Shown here: positions 11,405-20,400 of the stretch, one piece after another | Numbering within the stretch: position 1 is the first letter of the stretch | Layout of the letters: each line of letters starts with the position of its first letter | NCBI GenBank assembly: GCA_039029035.1 | Contig: JBCCGX010000001.1 | Span: forward strand, 1-42,557 | Source of the DNA: Acidobacteriota bacterium | Lineage (GTDB): Bacteria; Acidobacteriota; Thermoanaerobaculia; Multivoradales; J023 | Direction: 5' to 3' | DNA length: 42,557 nucleotides | Made by a program: the position numbers and the translations under genes | The notes under the pieces: generated by a model | The model's database searches: none | What the model saw: only the letters and a program-made list of their open reading frames with translations | What the model was told of the DNA's origin: nothing

Positions 11405-11470
11405 GGCGGCCTCCTGACCGGCTGAACCGGTCGGCGTTTGACGTCGAGAGGATGGCCTATACCGTACACT

Positions 11471-11845
11471 ATGCTGCCGCGCCCCGAGCAGCCATCTGAA
11501 AGGACGAATCTGTTGGCGAACGAGCCCCCGAGCAGTAACTACCAGCGCATCTACGCCGCCGTCCGCCGCATCCCGGAAGGGCGCGTCGCAACCTACGGTC
11601 AGATCGCAGTCTTGGCGGGCCTACCCGGCCACGCCCGGCAGGTCGGCTACGCCCTCCACGCCCTCGACGATGACACCGTGCCCTGGCACCGGGTGATCAA
11701 CGCCCAGGGCCGTGTCAGTCTGCGCTCCGAGCCTGGCTGGGAGGGCTTCCAGCGTCACCTCCTCGAGGCCGAGGGCGTGGCCTTCAACGCGCGAGGAGCG
11801 GTGGACTTGAAGCGCTTTCGTTGGGAGGAAGATCCGGCGGACTGA
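11471..11845 (+). CDS. Alkyltransferase-like (ATL) protein, MGMT/Ogt DNA-binding-domain family without the catalytic Cys
   Basis: IPEGRVATYGQIA...PWHRVINAQG: the Ogt/Ada active-site PCHRV is PWHRV here. The start is uncertain (TTG at 11438 or ATG at 11471). Confidence 0.75.
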   Translation: MLPRPEQPSERTNLLANEPPSSNYQRIYAAVRRIPEGRVATYGQIAVLAGLPGHARQVGYALHALDDDTVPWHRVINAQGRVSLRSEPGWEGFQRHLLEAEGVAFNARGAVDLKRFRWEEDPAD

Positions 11846-11860
11846 CGTTGCGACGGCCTG

Positions 11861-13066
11861 CTAAACCAACTCCCGGATGTACTTCTCCTGCAGCAGGCGC
11901 CAGAAGACGACGAAGAAGGCGGTCAGAGGGATCGCCAGGATCATGCCGGTGATGCCGGAGAGGGCGGAGCCCCAGAAGAAGATGGCGATGATGATCGCCA
12001 TCGGGTGGAGACCGGTCTGCTCGCCCATGATCCGCGGGGTCAGGACGTAACCTTCGATGGTCTGGACGATGGTGAAGACGAGCAGCACGGCGGCCAGAGT
12101 CGACCAGCCGCCGCCTTCCTGGAACAGGGCCAGGGGTAGGGCGACGCCCAGGCCGACGATGCTGCCGAGATAGGGGATGATGTTGAGGAAGCCGAGGAGT
12201 AGGCCGATGACGAGGCCGGAGCTCAAACCGACGACCTGAAAACCGATGCCGAAGAGCACTCCCTGCATGAAGGCGATGACGAACTGGCCGCGGAAGAAGG
12301 CGACGATGATCTCGACGAACTCGTTCACCAGGTAGGTGAGATCCTCACGGGTCTCTTGTTTCAGAAAGGGCAGCGCCGCCCGCGACCAGGTCTGGGCTCG
12401 GGCCTTGGGATCGATCAACAGCAAGAACGCGACGTAGACCGGCAGCACCGCCCAGCCGGCGAGGTTGCCCAGGGCGCCGAAGATGCCAGCGCCGGCGGAC
12501 AGGGCCTTGATCCCGACCATTCGCAGGGCCGAGAGCAGGGCGCTCTCTTTACCTTCCATCGCCGACGCCAGCTTCTCCTCGACACCATACTGCTGGAATA
12601 GCTCCTGAATCCTCGGCCAGCGCTCCTTGGCGTTGGCCACGCCGGCTTTCCACCATTCCGGGACCTTGGCAATCAGCTCGGAAGTCTGCTCGACGATGAT
12701 GTCGCCGAGGAACCAGCCGAAACCGCCAATGGGGATCAGAATCGCCAGGAAGACGGCGACCAGGGCCACGGGCTGGGGCAGCTTCAAGCGGCTATGAAAC
12801 CACTCGTAGTACGGCTTGAGGATCAGGGCGATGATGCCGGCGACGGCGAGGGGTACGAAGACGTGGGAAAAGCGGCTGAAGAAGGCGCCGATGAGCCACA
12901 GGAGCGCTGCCGCCGCGCAGACGATGACGAAGACGGACAGCACCGTCACAGCGGTGGCGAGGGTGGCTTTCTGGCGATCGCTGAAGGTGATAGCGCGTTT
13001 TGGCGGGGCCTTGCCGCCGACGTCGTCGACGCTGGCGGATTCTCTTGACTCTTCGTTGGCGTCCAT
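11861..13066 (-). CDS. AI-2E family transporter (PerM/YhhT-like permease, UPF0118)
   Basis: 401-aa polytopic membrane protein. The C-terminal blocks FLNIIPYLGSIVG and GLHPMAIIIAIFFWGSALSGITGMILAIPLTA are typical of the family. The strong SD aaggaggag sits before the ATG at 13066. Confidence 0.8.
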   Translation of the reverse strand: MDANEESRESASVDDVGGKAPPKRAITFSDRQKATLATAVTVLSVFVIVCAAAALLWLIGAFFSRFSHVFVPLAVAGIIALILKPYYEWFHSRLKLPQPVALVAVFLAILIPIGGFGWFLGDIIVEQTSELIAKVPEWWKAGVANAKERWPRIQELFQQYGVEEKLASAMEGKESALLSALRMVGIKALSAGAGIFGALGNLAGWAVLPVYVAFLLLIDPKARAQTWSRAALPFLKQETREDLTYLVNEFVEIIVAFFRGQFVIAFMQGVLFGIGFQVVGLSSGLVIGLLLGFLNIIPYLGSIVGLGVALPLALFQEGGGWSTLAAVLLVFTIVQTIEGYVLTPRIMGEQTGLHPMAIIIAIFFWGSALSGITGMILAIPLTAFFVVFWRLLQEKYIRELV

Positions 13067-13135
13067 GGTGCTCCTCCTTGTCCTTCGACGATACGGCGTC
13101 CCGTAGGGGATATTCGCTCTTCCCGTGTCGTTGTC

Positions 13136-14095
13136 TCAAGCGGCCGAAGTGGTGGCGTCCGCGTCGGCGGATGTCTCCGGTTCCACATGCCGACGCCACG
13201 CCTCGAGGCCGCCGGCCAGCGGCCGCACCCTGGCGATGCCTTTTCGGCGTAGCAAGAGCGCCACCCGGGCGCTCGACGCTTCGTTCGGTCACGTACAGAA
13301 GAGCACGACCTCCGGCCCTTGCGGGATCTCGGCCGTGCGCTGCTCGGCTTGCTCGACCGGGACGTGCAGGGCGCCGGGAATGCTGACCGGCTCGGCTTCG
13401 AACTCCACCGAGTGCCTCAGATCGACCACCACGATGTCCTCGCCGGCGTCGAGCTTTTGGGCCAGCTCGGCAGGGGTGATGCGGGCGATGCGCAGCTGGC
13501 GCAAGAAGCGTTGGCGCTGTACGTATTTGATCAGGATGTAGGCTGCCAAGGCGCCGACCAACAAGAGGCCGAAGCCGGTGCCCCAGGCCGCCAACTGTTC
13601 GGCCAGCTCTTCCAACTGCTGACCGAAGGCGTAGCCCAGGCTGCCGAAGGTGACGATCCAGAGCAGTGCGCCGAGCGCGTCGAAGACCACGAAACGGGAC
13701 AGGCGCATGCCGAAGATGCCGGCTAGCGGCGGCGCCACGGTGTTGAAGCCGGGCAGGAATTTCGCGATCAGCAGCGAGCGGGCGCCGTGGCGAGCGAAAA
13801 GGTCTTCGGTCCGGCGGACGCAGGAATCGGGCTCGAGGGAGATCCGACACAGAAGATTGAGGACTTTGATGCCACGTCGTCGGCCAATTTCGTACCACAA
13901 AAGGTCGGAGAGCACCGAGGCCGCCGTGGCGACCAGGAGCGCCAGACCGAGATGCAACTGCCCGGTGCGAGCGAGGGCCCCGCCTGCCAAGAGCACCGGC
14001 AGAGCCGGCAGCGGTAGACCGACCTGTTCGGCAAAGACGAAGCCGAAGAGCACCAGATACTTGTAGCGGATGATGAAGTCGAGGACTTCTTCCAT
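13136..14095 (-). CDS. DedA/VTT-family membrane protein fused to a C-terminal rhodanese domain, with an in-frame UGA at 13289-13291 read as candidate selenocysteine (the conventional ORF call stops at 13289)
   Basis: DedA N-terminus (YKYLVLFGFVFAEQVGLPLPALPVLLAGG) followed by a rhodanese domain (ITPAELAQKL...VVVDLR...IPGALH...VVLFCT). The ORF stops at TGA inside the active-site loop. The same frame stays open for 50 more codons (PNEASSARVALLLRRKGIARVRPLAGGLEAW...), which supply the missing rhodanese C-terminus, and ends at TGA 13136-13138. Confidence 0.65.
13247..13279 (-). promoter_or_regulatory. SECIS-like mRNA stem-loop downstream of the in-frame UGA
   Basis: On the minus strand, 14 nt after UGA: a 7-bp perfect stem GAGCGCC/GGCGCUC (13256-13274) with loop CGGGU. 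A 4-bp lower stem GCGU/ACGC is separated from it by an internal loop. The apical loop begins 21 nt after the UGA. Confidence 0.5.
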
Positions 14096-14118
14096 GTCCC
14101 GATCCCGTGGGCGTCGGC

Positions 14119-14721
14119 TTACTCGCCGTCGCCGTCGGCTGCCGGCAGAGAGACGATCTGACGCTCGATGCCATGACAGCCAGCCTCATTGAGGTCGATT
14201 CGCCACAACCCTTCGTAGCCATGGATCAGCAGTTGGCCGTCATGGTCGTTGATGTCGAGACGTTCGAAGCACGATGGAGCGGCGCCGAGCTCGATCAGGA
14301 TGTGGGGCACCGTGTCGCTGTGACCGACGACCAGAACGGCTGCGTCGTCTCGATGCCGCGACTTCAGATCAGCGAAGAAGTCAGCCAGCTGCGGCTGCTC
14401 GATGGTTCGATCGTCGGGGCTGATCGGTATGTCGGTGGCCTCGGCCAGCGGCATGCCGGTGGCCAGGGTTCGAGTCGTCGAGCTGGTGTAGATGGCCGCG
14501 ATGCCCGCGTCTTCGAGACGCTCGGCCAGGGCGTCGGCGCGATCCGTTCCGGGGCGGCTCAGGGGCCAGAAGCGATTGAGTGCGCGATCAGCCGGCCAGA
14601 AGTCGACCTTGTCGGCGTGGCGCACGAGGTAGAGAGTTGGTAGTCCTTCGCCAGCCCCGGCGGTGAGGCAGGGCAATGCCAGGAGCAGCAGGAGCACGGA
14701 TAGCCACCAGCCGTTTCGCAT
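14119..14721 (-). CDS. Histidine phosphatase family protein (PGAM/SixA-like), secreted
   Basis: Signal peptide WWLSVLLLLLALPCLTAGA. Catalytic blocks LYLVRHADK and VLVVGHSDT. ATG at 14721 with the SD ggaga is preferred over GTG at 14769. Confidence 0.75.
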   Translation of the reverse strand: MRNGWWLSVLLLLLALPCLTAGAGEGLPTLYLVRHADKVDFWPADRALNRFWPLSRPGTDRADALAERLEDAGIAAIYTSSTTRTLATGMPLAEATDIPISPDDRTIEQPQLADFFADLKSRHRDDAAVLVVGHSDTVPHILIELGAAPSCFERLDINDHDGQLLIHGYEGLWRIDLNEAGCHGIERQIVSLPAADGDGE

Positions 14722-15010
14722 CGTTGGATCTCCGGTCAAGATTCGTTGAACGCCTGATTGTATCGCCACGAGCGGCCGAACGTTAGCGTCGATCCATGTT
14801 GCGCACCGCGTCAGTGTCTCGACTCAAGGTCTCCGCGGCAGCGGCGATCTCGACCCATCCCACCGTGTTTGGAGGCTGGTGCTTGCCGCAACAGGCTCCA
14901 AGCGGCGTGTTAACATTCGTCTCGACGTTTGGTCCGGGGAGTTGACGGGGTGGTCCGGTGTGGCCGGGGTGGCGAAGGAGCTTCGAGGAGCGCGCGTGGC
15001 GAGCCAAACG

Positions 15011-17398
15011 ATGAACGATACCGGCTTGCCGATCGATCAGGCGGACGCCGAACGAGGCAAAGCCGAGCGTCTGCGACGCTTCCACACCGTACGCTCGCCG
15101 CGTTTGCGGGTGGTCGGATATCTCGTCTTCGTAGCCTTTGCCTGGGCCCACAATCTGATTCTGCAGCCCGCCTCGGAGCACGGGCCGTTGCAAGGGGTGA
15201 CCGCGGGGGTCATCGCCTATGTCGCACTGAGCTGGATGCTGCTCGTCACCGCCTACGATCGGGTTCGTCGGGTCAACCTGGGCGATGTCTTCCTGATCGC
15301 CGATGGGCTGGTCGTCTTGGCAGTGATTTGGGCGACCGGCGGTGATCGCAGCTTGCTGTTCTTCTGTTTGATCTTGAGAGCGGCCGATCAGTCGGCTATC
15401 AGCTCTCGGCGCAGCGCGTTCTTTGGCGTCCTCTCGGTTGTGTTCTACCTCGGGCTCATGGTCGGGCTGGACCTGGTCCCGGGACGGAAGATCGCGTGGC
15501 CCATTGTGTGGGTCAAAGCGGGGTTCATCGCAGGCGTCAACTTCTATCTGTTCGGGGTCGCTGGAACGGCCGATCGGTATCGTCGGCGCACCTCCCAGGC
15601 GGTGCAGATGACGCGCTCCTTGGTCTTGGACCTGGAAGAGAAGTCGCGCCAGCTGGAGGACGAGAAAGTCAAGGCACAGGCCGCCAGCCGGGCCAAGAGC
15701 CAGTTCGTGGCCAATATGAGCCATGAGATCCGAACGCCGATGAACGCCATCATCGGCTTCAATCGTCTGCAACAGAAGTGTGACCTGCCGGATGACGCGG
15801 TGGAGCTGGCCAAACATATCGGCCTGTCGGGCGAGAGCCTGCTGCAATTGATCGACGACATCCTCGATCTCTCGAAGGTCGAAGCCGGCAAGTTGGATGT
15901 CGAAGATGTTCCCTTCTCTCTCGCCGTGGCGCTCGACCAGGTGCTCGGCATCGTCGGCCAGCGGGCGGCAGAGAAAGGCGTCCGGCTCGCTCTCGAGTGT
16001 GGCGACGACCTGCCGGCTGGGGTGCGCGGCGACCCCGCACGTCTGCTGCAGGTGCTACTCAATCTGATGGGCAATGCGGTCAAGTTTACCGACCGCGGCA
16101 CGGTGACTCTGCGAGCCAGCACGGTCGACGGCTCCGAGGACGAGCTGAGCTTCGAGGTGCTCGATACCGGGATCGGGATCGAAGCGGCCTCCCTGGATCA
16201 GCTCTTCGATCCCTTCGTCCAAGTCGACTCTTCGCAGGCTCGCCGCGCTGGTGGAACCGGACTCGGGTTGGCGATCAGCCGCCGCCTGGTAGAGCTGATG
16301 TCGGGCTCGATCGAGGTCGACAGTGTTCCGGGGGTGGGTAGTAAGTTCACGGTGCGTCTACCCTTACCGGCGGCCGAGGTCACCAGCGAAGGACCGGAGT
16401 TGTCGGATCTGCCTTACGCTGAGTTAGCGGCGGACGTCAATATCCTGGTGGCGGATGACAATTCGATGAACCGCCTGGTCGTCGGCCTGCAGTTGAAGGC
16501 CCTCGGCGTGAGTGCCGACACCGTCGAAGACGGACGGCAGACCCTCGAAGCGCTGGCGAGAACGGACTACGATCTCTTGCTGCTCGACTGCCAGATGCCC
16601 GAGCTCGACGGCTACGAGACCGCGCGGCGCATCCGAGCCGGCGAGACCGCAGGCCGGATGCCGATCATCGCCATGACCGCCCATGCAATGAAGGGCGATC
16701 GGCAGCGCTGTCTCGAAGCCGGCATGGACGACTACATCGCCAAGCCGTTCAACGAGGACGAATTGGTCGACAAGTTGGCGCGTTGGCTGCCGGGCACTGC
16801 ACACCCAGGGGCTAGGTATGCCGACCGAGTGGGCGCTGATGCCGCTCTTTCTGGCGCTGAAGCTTCGGGAGTTGCGCTCTCTGACGCTGGGGCTAACGGC
16901 CTTGCGGCCCCTGACGCTGTAGACCCCGACGCGGCTACGAATCCTGCCACTGCCGACCTCACCATCGGGAACAACGAGGCTGCGGATTCGGCAAACGGGG
17001 GGGATGGCGAGGCTGCTCCGGCGTCCGTCACCAGGCCGATACCGGACGGTCCGCTGGATCTGGCCAAGTTCGAGTATTTTCGTCGGCTCGGCAAGCAGAC
17101 GGGCGACGGTAAAATGCTGACCCGGGTGGTCGATGGCTTCCAGGAGCGTGCGCCGGTGAAGCTACGAGAGCTGGAGACGGCCCTGGCCACCGGTGAGCTC
17201 GAGGCTGCCGCTGCGGCGGCCCACGCGATGAAGGGCTCGTCGGGAACCCTCGGTGCGAGCCGACTGGCGGCTCTGTGCAGTGAGGTCGAAGAGGCGCTGC
17301 TGGCCGACGATGTCGAGGGCGCCGAGAGCCTTTGCCGCCAGGTAGCCGAGGAGCTCGAGCGCACGAGTGCCGCCTTGGAGGGGCTGATGCAGGAGTGA
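15011..17398 (+). CDS. Membrane-bound hybrid histidine kinase (TM region - HisKA - HATPase_c - receiver - Ala/Asp-rich linker - Hpt)
   Basis: H-box [31 protein letters not shown]. Receiver [13 protein letters not shown]...[13 protein letters not shown]...KPF. Hpt motif [17 protein letters not shown] at 15011 (MNDTGLPI) is preferred over the upstream extension from 14879. Confidence 0.85.
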
Positions 17399-17400
17399 CC

Positions 17401-17418
17401 CCCCGGCCCGTGCCGGGG
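17401..17418. terminator. GC-rich hairpin between convergent genes
   Basis: ccccggc-ccgt-gccgggg, immediately after the kinase stop codon (17396-17398) and before the stop of the convergent gene at 17439. Confidence 0.45.
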
Positions 17419-17438
17419 AGTCTGGGCTCAGGCCGAGC

Positions 17439-20400
17439 TCAGTCGAGGGTCAGGCGTTGCCAGCCGCCGTCTCCGACTTGGTTGTCCGGATTCTTCACCT
17501 TGACTCCGATCCAGTTCCAGTTTTGGGGATCGGGCTGGAAGGGATCTGTCGGCAGCGGCGGCTCGTTGATGTTGAAGGTCGGGTTGACCGGCGGACCCTG
17601 ATCGAGCAGGGCGTTCTGTACTCCGGGAGCGTGCGGGCCGCCGAGCATCGTCATGTAGTACATCAGCGCATCGAGCTCCACCGCCGTCTCCCAGGTCCGG
17701 CTGCCGTCCGCCAGCACCTCGTCGGTGGGGTGGATCGGCAGCTCGATCTCGAGCAGGGTCGGCTGGTTCGGATCGTCGATCGGCAAAGTGGGATCGGGCG
17801 CCGGTCCTCCGATCTGATCCTGCCGATAGAGCAGGAGCTTGGCGCCTTGCAGAATGTTCTTGCCCGACACGCGGAAGCGCCGCGATGGGTCGTGCCGGAT
17901 CTCTTCGAGGCCGAAGCCCTGTCCGATCAAGGCATGCTGGAAGAGGCGCACGACATGGGGAAAGAACCCACCATGGTCTTCTTCGTAGCCCAGGCTCGGG
18001 TTGGTGGGATCGGTGAGCTCGGCCCAGAAGCGGGTCATTTGGGGTACGTCGGCATAGGCCGTGTTGGGGCGCATCGGCTGCAGCATCAGGTAGTCCGGCG
18101 CCGCGGTGTTCGAGAGCTGCGACACCGCCGTGGTCGGCGAGGCGACACGGCGCTCGCTGCCCAGGGGTGTGCCGGTCAACACCAGCCGATCGTCGCTGGT
18201 GGTCAGCAAGTTGAGCAGCCCTTGAAAGGTGAACGGCGAGCCCCCGGGCTCCTCACGGTAGGTCGGTGCGACACCGGTGACGTCATACCAGAAGCCGCGA
18301 TCGCCGCTGGCCGAGAAGAATTGCGCCGCCAGGCCGATATTGGCGACTTTCGCCTGGTCTTGCAGCACCTGGGCGGCCAGGTTCGCCAGGTTCAGGGAGG
18401 TCGGGTCGACCGGATCGTGCACCCGGTCGTCGGCGGTGTAGGGGATGCCGGCCAGCGGCGCGACGCCCCAATCCATCTCGTGGACGAATTGGTTCAACGC
18501 TTCGAGCTCGTCGCAAAGCTCGAACACCCCCGGGGTGACCGGCGTCTGGCACATGTCGGAGAAGAAGAACTGGTTGAAGGCGTTGATGCTCGCCAGGCGG
18601 TTGGCGTTCGGTAGCAGGATGTTCTGGTCGGAAAAGAAGCCGGTGTGGGCCATACCCTCGAGACCAGACAGCGGCGACAGCTGCGGGAAGTCGGAGCCGC
18701 TGCGGTCGAGCCGGGCCTCTTTCTGGAACAGGCCGCGCAACGCCGCCGTCTCGATCGGCTGGTTGGCCAGCGGAAGGCCAGCACGGTCGAACGGGGAGTC
18801 GCCTTCGATGAACTCGGTCAGCTTGTTGTTGCTGCCCTCGGGCAAGGCGTGGCAGTGGACGCAAGACCGGCTGTCGGAGTTGAGCATGTGGTAGATCTTC
18901 ATCCCTAGCTGGGCCCCCGTGCCGCGGTTCGGATCCACCGCGTCGACGCTGTCGGGATCGCCAAAATCACCGCTGAATGCGCGGCCGAGCGGCTGCTTGG
19001 GGTTGGGTGGGTAGTGCACCGAGTTGATGTACTCCTCGTAGTCTTCCATCTGATCGTCGGTGAGCTCGTTGTTGCGGCCGAGGAGCGAGACGAAAGCCGG
19101 GTTGAAATCGATGAAGGTGGCGTTGTCGCCTCGCCAATGGTACGGAGCGTTGGTCGTCAGTTGCTGGGTGGTGGGGTCGAGCTCGAAGTTGAGCAAACCT
19201 TGCAGCGACTGAGTGACCATGAACTCCTTGTCATCGGGCCAGTTGAAGAGCACCGGATTGCCAATCATGTCGTCGAGGCCAGCAGGAAATGCCGGGCCGG
19301 CGGTAGCCGGTGTGCCGAGGTGCCAGGCAAGACCGTCGGTGCGCGCATCCGTATGGCAGCTGGCGCAAGAGTCGAAGCCGTTGCCCGATAGCTTGGCGTC
19401 GTAGAGGAAGCGCTGGCCGATCAAGATGTAATCTGGTCGGGGATCGTGGTTCAGCCGCACGTTGTCGAGCTCGGTCTCGGCCACCGGATCGATAATGGTC
19501 AGCGAGTTCTCCAACCGGTTGAGCACGTAGAGGCGCTGCATGGGTCCATCCATCAAGGCCAGGGCGCGGGGCCCTGCCTTGGCGACGTTCGGCGCACCGG
19601 CGAGGGAAACGTTGATCTTGCGCCGTGGCCAGGTGTTCGGGTTGGTGGCGAAATTGGGCTCCAAGACACCGACCCGATCCGAGCCAAAGGCGGTAAAGAA
19701 GACCTTGAGCGATCCACCGGGGGGCGTGAAGGCGACGATGCTGGTGAGCTGTGCCAGGGCGTCCTTCTTCTTCGCCGGCCCCACCAGCGGTAGAGGCTCG
19801 ATAGGCCTGGCCGCTGCTTTGCTGGTCGGTGTGGTGAGCGGGTCGAGGGGCAAACCGTTGGGTGGTTCGAAGATCACTGCCTGGGACACCAGGTTGACGT
19901 CGCGACCCTTGACTTGCGGAGCGGGGCCGCAGACGTCCTTCACCATGTAGACGAAGCTCTCGACAAAGCCGGTCGGTGCGGTCGCCACCACCGGCTCGGT
20001 CAGCCGGGTCTCGTTCAAGGCCTCGCCGGAGACGACGAAGAGGTCACCATTCGATAGGGTCATGTTGAAGTTGGTGCTACCGAGCTGACCGAGGTCGGAC
20101 ACCGTGAGGGCGGTGAGGTCGACGATGTAGAGGGCATAGTCGAAGTAGGTTGGATCGGTGCCGACGCTGGCCGATTCGTTGCCGCCCTTCATGCCGAGGA
20201 TCAACAGACAGTCGTTGTGTACGGCGATCGCCCGCGGCTCCTTCAAAGCGATTTGATCGGGCAGGGTGTCGCCGTCGAGGTCGCCTTTCTGTACTGCGGC
20301 GTCGATGAGGGCGAGGCCAGGCAGAGCGTCGAGGGTCAGGGCGTCGCGCCAGCCCCAGCCGTCGAGTGTCATGTGGGTGACGAAGAGGGTCTCCCGCGCT

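Follow-up and report, generated by a model that had tools for sequence, protein, structure and literature searches.

The stretch of DNA analysed here (the window; 42,557 nucleotides (nt), contig JBCCGX010000001.1 of an Acidobacteriota bacterium of the class Thermoanaerobaculia) carries on its minus strand, at positions 13136-14095, a gene that joins a DedA/VTT membrane domain to a rhodanese domain; its 319 codons, followed by a terminal stop, contain a single in-frame UGA at codon 269 (13289-13291). Gene calling ends at this triplet: the called open reading frame (ORF; 13289-14095, minus strand) has 268 codons, terminates in ...EVVLFCT-TGA and is deposited at NCBI as MEM7349162.1, a 268-residue 'VTT domain-containing protein'. 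A preliminary description of the window, made from its letters, had proposed that the called ORF breaks off in the middle of a rhodanese catalytic loop and that the UGA encodes selenocysteine (Sec, U). Its account of the immediate surroundings was borne out in full. The ORF does stop within this loop, and the same frame stays open for 50 further codons (13139-13288; PNEASSARVALLLRRKGIARVRPLAGGLEAWRRHVEPETSADADATTSAA) up to the true stop, the TGA at 13136-13138. This extension, absent from the ORF call, includes PNEASSARVALLLRRKGI..RPLAGGLEAWRR.. and contributes the remainder of the active-site loop as well as a helix and the strand-helix with GG..W; GIARVRPLAGGLEAWR is an example of a peptide lying C-terminal to residue 269 of the conceptual product. 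The fraction of G/C at its third codon positions (GC3) is 0.80, equal to the 80 percent estimated earlier and comparable to the 0.74-0.87 of the genes of the window, and counting it as coding reduces the gap before the next gene, previously given as about 220 bp, from 222 nt to 69 nt.

Searches with the 319-residue product, carrying Cys in place of the stop, placed the DedA/VTT domain at residues 30-155 (13631-14008, minus strand; PF09335, 62.5 bits, cut-off 33.9) and the rhodanese domain at residues 207-302 (13190-13477, minus strand; PF00581, 48.7 bits, cut-off 22.2). As the latter match covers profile positions 1-101 of 102, the rhodanese domain spans the UGA and is completed by the extension, just as the preliminary description had stated. 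The DedA-like region reaches to about residue 196, where the last transmembrane helix is followed by a cluster of basic residues. NCBIfam models for E. coli DedA (NF008102) and for UptA (NF052604 and NF052605) cover residues 11-196, with equivalog scores below their respective cut-offs (64.6 vs 236, 59.3 vs 250 and 46.7 vs 300 bits); judged by these profiles, the protein is a member of the DedA family and not the orthologue of a characterised transporter. An AlphaFold2 model of a Cys-containing homologue (P0027; alignment of 46 sequences, mean predicted local distance difference test score 81) is helical over residues 3-200 and continues into a rhodanese fold, in which the central strand 262-267 ends at C267, residues 268-271 form the loop T-C269-P-N, and a helix starts at residue 272. 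Matches to solved structures, obtained with Foldseek and phmmer, were confined to the rhodanese domain (3tp9, 3fnj, 3ilm, 6mxv and YgaP, 5hbl); for the DedA part, Foldseek matched no structure in the PDB. In sequence alignments, the catalytic Cys of the solved rhodaneses falls on either C267 (codon TGT, 13295-13297, minus strand; invariant in our 25- and 46-sequence protein alignments) or position 269, and both positions are invariant among the homologues, so that a C-x-U pair is the safe description of this site.

A search of a large protein collection recovered the window product itself (P0001) together with about 30 more distinct homologues of 64-89% identity, every one of them exactly 268 residues long, and, at lower ranks, hundreds of DedA-rhodanese fusions of 311-332 residues and 53-63% identity. 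When 25 homologues were aligned, the long forms read L-[YF]-C-[TAS]-C-P-N-E-[AV]-T-[SA]-A, the 268-residue forms all ended in ...C[TK], and the second Cys of the long forms fell exactly where the short forms stop. The preliminary description had given the loop of the Cys homologues as C-[ST]-C-P-N-E, with the UGA in place of the second Cys; the motif observed is the somewhat wider C-[TASND]-C-P-N-E, and both the Cys at this column and the continuation of the homologues through the GG..W block are seen in the alignments. All non-UGA homologues carry Cys at the UGA column. The Cys-containing fusions have the same architecture as the window protein and share with it all other invariant residues, including C83, C92, C267 and P270. 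They go by names such as 'membrane protein DedA with SNARE-associated domain/rhodanese-related sulfurtransferase' (Joint Genome Institute) or 'DedA family protein/thiosulfate sulfurtransferase GlpE' (NCBI), and among them we found no functionally characterised member.

The UGA recurs at the same position in many genomes. On four contigs that encode short forms (L001, L002, L008 and L009), a TGA stands at the same column and is followed in frame by PNEA[ST]SARVALLLR.KGI..RPLAGGLE.WR. Scanning of the GTDB species genomes with the degenerate DNA pattern L-[FY]-C-x-TGA-P-N-E-[AV]-[ST]-x-A yielded at least 120 loci, placing the in-frame TGA form in at least 120 species. Among the matches listed, the hosts are mostly Acidobacteriota (Thermoanaerobaculia, Bryobacteraceae, Acidobacteriaceae, Acidoferrum and Korobacteraceae), the others being Rokubacteria, Myxococcota, Binatia, Udaeobacter, a metagenome-assembled genome (MAG) of Pseudomonadales, and Desulfofustis; in all matches listed, the TGA is followed by 31-120 sense codons for a rhodanese C-terminus of the pattern PNEA[ST][SA]A...RPL.GG...W. 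None of the 120 UGA-containing sequences (hereafter Sec forms) of testable length has a stop within the first 33 codons after the UGA, and a motif of the GGxxxW type (GGxxxW or GxxxxW) is present in 124 of 125. The three-base periodicity is unchanged past the UGA, and the downstream protein is under purifying selection: column entropies for the first, second and third codon positions are 0.97, 0.90 and 1.63 bits after the UGA, compared to 1.14, 0.86 and 1.59 bits before it and 0.91, 0.88 and 1.58 bits in the Cys forms. A DedA domain is demonstrable in 113 of 130 UGA loci, most of the remainder being truncated contigs. Examples of the UGA form in complete genomes are OZ255834.1 and OY969786.1. 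In four GTDB loci (L043, L081, L091 and L108), the ORF 5' of the UGA is short even though the contig is uncut at that point, which may reflect a frameshift, an error of assembly or a copy of the fusion gene in decay.

Within the coding sequence shortly after the UGA, the RNA can fold into a hairpin resembling a bacterial selenocysteine insertion sequence (SECIS). It occupies positions 13256-13274 on the minus strand, where a 5' arm (GAGCGCC, 13268-13274) and a 3' arm (GGCGCUC, 13256-13262) enclose the loop CGGGU (13263-13267). Measured from the UGA, the stem begins after 14 nt and the loop after 21 nt, the latter distance lying inside the 16-37 nt range used by bSECISearch. For comparison with genes that have no UGA to decode, 117 distinct Cys-form loci, all reading C-x-C-P-N-E, were collected from metagenomes with the same DNA pattern, in which TGY replaced TGA. 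These comparisons show selection for the hairpin as an RNA structure, and this selection is specific to the UGA forms. Among the Sec forms, all seven stem pairs are formed in 72 of 123, and an unbroken run of six or more pairs starting at the loop in 98 of 123, whereas in the Cys forms the pair closing the loop is missing in 70 of 117 and six or more contiguous pairs are found in just 9 of 117. Of the structure that the preliminary description had derived from the one sequence, the hairpin with its 7-bp stem proved conserved, covarying and UGA-specific; the additional 4-bp lower stem, though part of the minimum-energy fold of the window sequence, is not conserved, with two of the four pairs unpaired in most homologues.

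Selection on the RNA is visible in the choice of codons. Counted from the UGA, GCC is used for the Ala at codon +7 by 120 of 123 Sec forms versus 42 of 117 Cys forms, the last base of codon +9 is G in 121 of 123 Sec forms, and Arg +8 is encoded exclusively by CGU or CGG in the Sec forms, CGC being the commonest codon in the Cys forms. Third-position entropies over codons +6 to +10 are 0.83, 0.21, 0.85, 0.14 and 0.83 bits in the Sec forms and 1.5-1.7 bits in the Cys forms, whereas the nearby four-fold degenerate sites at +1, +4 and +5 vary freely in the Sec forms as well. The residues at +8 and +9 (R and V/A) are also near-fixed in the Sec forms, while they are free in the Cys forms, and thus it is the RNA that constrains the protein here. 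Where genes encode the identical peptide S-A-R-[VA]-A-L, the hairpin is found in 95 of 95 Sec forms, compared to three of nine Cys forms, counts to which the phylogenetic relatedness of the sequences also applies. The three are the metagenomic loci L148, L186 and L188, which may represent recent conversions from Sec to Cys. Compensatory changes occur in the stem; 52 sequences have CG as the outer pair and 33 have GC, and pair 24/36 is CG in 102, GC in seven and UA in five. The covariation score of 0.180 exceeds that of shuffled alignments (0.122; none of 500 reaches the observed value) and of slid partners (0.02-0.085), although the sequences are related and the shuffle and Fisher figures consequently overstate their independence. 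In addition to the stem, the sequence of the loop is conserved in the Sec forms, with the consensus C-G-K-G-Y, whose G residues are at positions 26 and 28 when the U of the UGA is numbered 1. This conservation implies a sequence-specific binder.

In its location within the coding sequence shortly after the UGA, and in its small apical loop with conserved G, the hairpin resembles the SECIS of E. coli fdhF. The two are unrelated in sequence, however, and in the window no bulged U is evident and the loop follows C-G-K-G-Y; SelB binding is putative. By analogy with SECIS elements of the fdhF type, a ribosome arriving at UGA-269 would encounter the hairpin 14 nt downstream, which would recruit SelB-GTP-Sec-tRNA(Sec), and selenocysteine would be inserted in place of termination. 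The product would be an inner-membrane protein of 319 residues, in which an N-terminal DedA/VTT domain and a final transmembrane helix precede a rhodanese domain at the C-terminus, with the loop C267-T-U269-P-N-E. Based on the comparative evidence above, we consider that 13136-14095 very probably represents a genuine, mis-annotated selenoprotein gene, with a probability of roughly 0.88. From this we infer SelB-dependent decoding and incorporation of selenium, as well as the presence of selA, selB, selC and selD in the source genome.

Several observations weigh against this assignment. Viewed in isolation, the single hairpin of the window is only modestly better than shuffled sequence (-13.5 kcal/mol for the 23 nt, z = -2.95; one of 200 shuffles folds as well), and in a context of 71 nt the fold energy is ordinary for GC-rich DNA (z = -0.23). 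A hairpin in one sequence is therefore weak evidence, and the strength of the argument comes from the comparison across genomes. No Rfam model fits the hairpin, either in the whole window at gathering thresholds or in 13100-13400 at E<=10; the output was at chance level (sX12, a frameshift element and Actino-ugpB) and contained no SECIS model, a result that neither favours nor rejects the hairpin. Moreover, selA, selB, selC and selD are all absent from the 42.5-kb window, in which ARAGORN detects no tRNA of any kind, and the same program finds no tRNA-Sec in the approximately 130 Sec-form loci (L001-L129).

A SelD encoded 5 kb from the fusion gene in L001 (15554-16627, minus strand; 287 bits on TIGR00476, passing the model) has to be rejected as a sign of Sec decoding, since it is a divergent paralogue in an unrelated-looking operon, and this too counts against the selenoprotein assignment. 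Its nearest database relatives are 56% and 49% identical. The cluster in which it lies (13246-19302) looks like an unusual selenium-related or defence-like one and not like canonical Sec machinery: the SelD gene overlaps by 4 nt a gene for an 892-residue NACHT/AAA_16 + FGE-sulfatase protein, and a TIR-domain protein and a TPMT-type methyltransferase adjoin. A database search with this SelD also returned many homologues of 316-325 residues, which gene callers may have truncated N-terminally at the Sec codon, and further ones with a fused CMD/AhpD-like (PF02627) or NifS-like (PF00266) domain. The AhpD-like selenoprotein of Occallatibacter has no tblastn match in L001-L129 or in the window. Acidobacteria are documented as users of selenocysteine (PMC1794560), and Occallatibacter riparius provides a precedent within the Acidobacteriota (PMC12013277); the support for Sec use by the carriers is thus at the level of the phylum only.

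That no Sec machinery was found in the window or the related loci bears on the alternative that survives best, namely that translation in this organism really terminates at UGA-269. The gene could then be the relic of a selenoprotein left behind after loss of the machinery, or it could mainly produce a DedA protein of 268 residues that ends in a defective rhodanese remnant, the full-length form being made only when selenium is available, in the manner of a selenium-dependent switch. The trait is indeed labile, as changes between Sec and Cys are frequent; parsimony on a rough neighbour-joining tree suggests at least 12 of them. However, once decoding had been lost, the extension and the hairpin would be expected to decay quickly. 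Both are intact in the window, where the stem is identical to those of relatives with 72-87% protein identity, and the lack of stops in the first 33 downstream codons of all 120 testable loci likewise speaks against this reading. We therefore regard termination at this codon as quite unlikely.

It is also conceivable that the UGA is read through without selenocysteine, by near-cognate insertion of Trp or Cys and with stimulation by the hairpin. Hairpins can have this effect, and a UGA followed by C, as found here, is a known leaky context. The comparison of homologues argues against this explanation, since the residue found in all non-UGA forms is Cys, yielding a classic Cys/Sec pair, since the hairpin matches bacterial SECIS elements in position, size and loop G and is conserved in the loop sequence itself, and since curators class the stand-alone family, which is homologous, among the selenoproteins. 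Read-through of this kind has, in our estimate, very little probability.

The two remaining alternatives are negligible. The preliminary description had retained a lone nonsense mutation, and thus a pseudogene, or a sequencing or assembly error at 13289-13291, which a single window is insufficient to exclude; the recurrence of the identical TGA codon in more than 125 independent assemblies, from varied studies and phyla and with conserved coding downstream, effectively refutes this. A genome-wide reassignment of UGA to sense, as in genetic codes 4 or 25, is refuted as well: TGA ends 14 of the 23 genes of the window, including the present one at 13136-13138, and is the commonest ordinary stop there, and as UGA is used as a normal stop, the code is not reassigned. 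Among these genes, only the fusion gene has a coding-like read-through extension. For 12 of the other 13 genes ending in TGA, the GC3 past the stop is 0.40-0.72, and the exception, with 0.83, spans just 12 codons.

The rhodanese module of the window protein belongs to a subtype for which selenoproteins are already known. Its best NCBIfam match is NF041203, 'rhodanese_LYCAU, rhodanese-related (seleno)protein' (69 bits, cut-off 115). This family, with the motif CxU and the example TKB26178.1, is listed in prokaryotic selenoprotein reviews of 2022 and 2026 and was, according to these, predicted by Zhang & Gladyshev in 2005 with bSECISearch (PMC13188914, PMC9312934), confirming the earlier statement that rhodanese-related sulfurtransferases are among the reported selenoprotein families. 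TKB26178.1 is a small protein with a signal peptide, which reads ...IVLYCAUPNEYTSARLAQKL...; the family and the window protein share the loop L-[YF]-C-x-U-P-N-E-A-[TS]-S-A with Sec at the same column, with L-F-C-T-U-P-N-E in the window corresponding to L-Y-C-A-U-P-N-E in TKB26178.1. Stand-alone genes of the NF041203 type also carry the hairpin at the same distance from the UGA, as GCGCC-CGUGU-GGCGU in L014 and in compensatory variants in L026 and L106. The members of NF041203, however, are secreted proteins of about 126-137 residues (profile length 126) with an N-terminal signal peptide and without a membrane domain, whereas in the window the Sec-rhodanese forms the C-terminal third of a 319-residue DedA fusion and probably faces the cytoplasm. 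The scores on this profile amount to 156-173 bits for the stand-alone L014, L026 and L106, 90 bits for an antiporter fusion, 76-82 bits for other DedA fusions and 69 bits for the window protein.

The antiporter fusion represents a third architecture, in which the C-x-U rhodanese and its hairpin form the C-terminus of a K+/H+ antiporter (CPA) of about 530-570 residues; it is found in MAGs of Kofleriaceae and Myxococcota (L029:6458 (UGA), L056:1311 and L087, minus strand). The unit of rhodanese, Sec and SECIS is homologous to NF041203 and behaves as a portable cassette, found on its own as well as in fusions with DedA or with a K+/H+ antiporter. Rhodaneses tied to membranes are known from other proteins. 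E. coli YgaP, whose rhodanese domain is the structural match 5hbl, is held in the membrane by a C-terminal anchor, and the selenoprotein TsoB (NF045694) has a rhodanese/DsbD fusion-like layout in which a rhodanese is likewise joined to a membrane module. In the window protein, by contrast, the membrane partner is DedA/VTT, and its Sec motif is CxU, compared to the UxxxxU of TsoB; the TsoB model is not among the matches of the window protein, and another DedA fusion scores 18.6 bits on it, against a cut-off of 805. Full-text literature searches returned no paper linking DedA to a selenoprotein, DedA is not mentioned in the 2026 review of prokaryotic selenoproteins or in the main text and part of the supplements of the deep-Sep paper, and no fusion model of NCBIfam release 20.0 scores above its cut-off for the window protein. 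While the C-x-U rhodanese module is already known, the DedA-fused membrane form therefore appears to be new and undescribed.

The Arg/Lys cluster KYVQRQRFLRQLRIAR that follows the last helix suggests a cytoplasmic location of the rhodanese domain. There, the likely chemistry of the C-x-U pair would be that of a selenenylsulfide or of a perselenide/persulfide relay, i.e. of a sulfur/selenium transferase or redox switch on a DedA transporter, and the most likely function would be to transfer sulfur or selenium, or to carry out a redox step through a selenenylsulfide, while anchored to a DedA-type transporter. A more specific proposal, which we consider rather improbable, is that this is the first selenoprotein of the DedA/VTT (TMEM41/VMP1) superfamily and that a chalcogen moved or bound by DedA, such as selenite/selenide, thiosulfate or persulfide, is captured on C267-x-U269 at the cytoplasmic face in a transport-coupled sulfur/selenium relay. 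The preliminary description had pointed in this direction by linking E. coli DedA to the handling of selenite; the review that reports the DedA-selenite phenotype attributes it to Ralstonia metallidurans and not to E. coli (PMC11422209). If the relay existed, it would tie this old and unexplained phenotype to chemistry, and the portable cassette of rhodanese, Sec and internal SECIS would have been inserted into three or more settings, namely a secreted protein, DedA and a K+/H+ antiporter.

The neighbourhood of the gene offers no conserved partner in selenium or sulfur metabolism, as judged by clustering the surroundings of the Sec loci, in which a clade-restricted MarR-YceI-nitroreductase arrangement is the sole recurrent pattern. 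In this arrangement, genes for a MarR regulator, YceI and a nitroreductase lie immediately upstream on the same strand, at L008:8099-9944 and in about 11-15 other GTDB loci of an Acidoferrales/Terriglobia clade, which hints at a stress or electrophile-response operon. In the window, a gene for an AI-2E family transporter (11861-13066, minus strand) lies 69 nt downstream of the true stop on the same strand and is also found in L002-L007 and L009, and a histidine-phosphatase gene (14119-14769, minus strand) is located directly upstream and recurs, together with QueF, in L001. The transporter gene adjoins one for a small MGMT-like DNA_binding_1 protein of 135 residues (11438-11845), a pairing also seen in L009. 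Sec variants are known in the MGMT family, and the MGMT-like gene of the window shows no sign of recoding. A TGA-linked frame upstream of it was dismissed as a candidate recoded gene, being antisense to a sulfatase gene, and no other recoded gene was found in the window.

All the UGA forms that we examined, whether database entries or retrieved loci, end at codon 268 and are either named 'VTT domain-containing protein' or not named at all. Since well over 100 GTDB species, belonging to phyla that are abundant in soil, carry the gene, selenocysteine-containing DedA-rhodanese proteins would make up a sizeable hidden part of the soil selenoproteome, and an integral-membrane protein of the DedA family would be added to the known selenoproteins. 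The C-x-U rhodanese module with its embedded SECIS would at the same time be an example of a unit that moves between architectures and repeatedly swaps Sec and Cys. For the poorly understood DedA family, and for the use of selenium by Acidobacteriota, the gene would provide an experimental handle.

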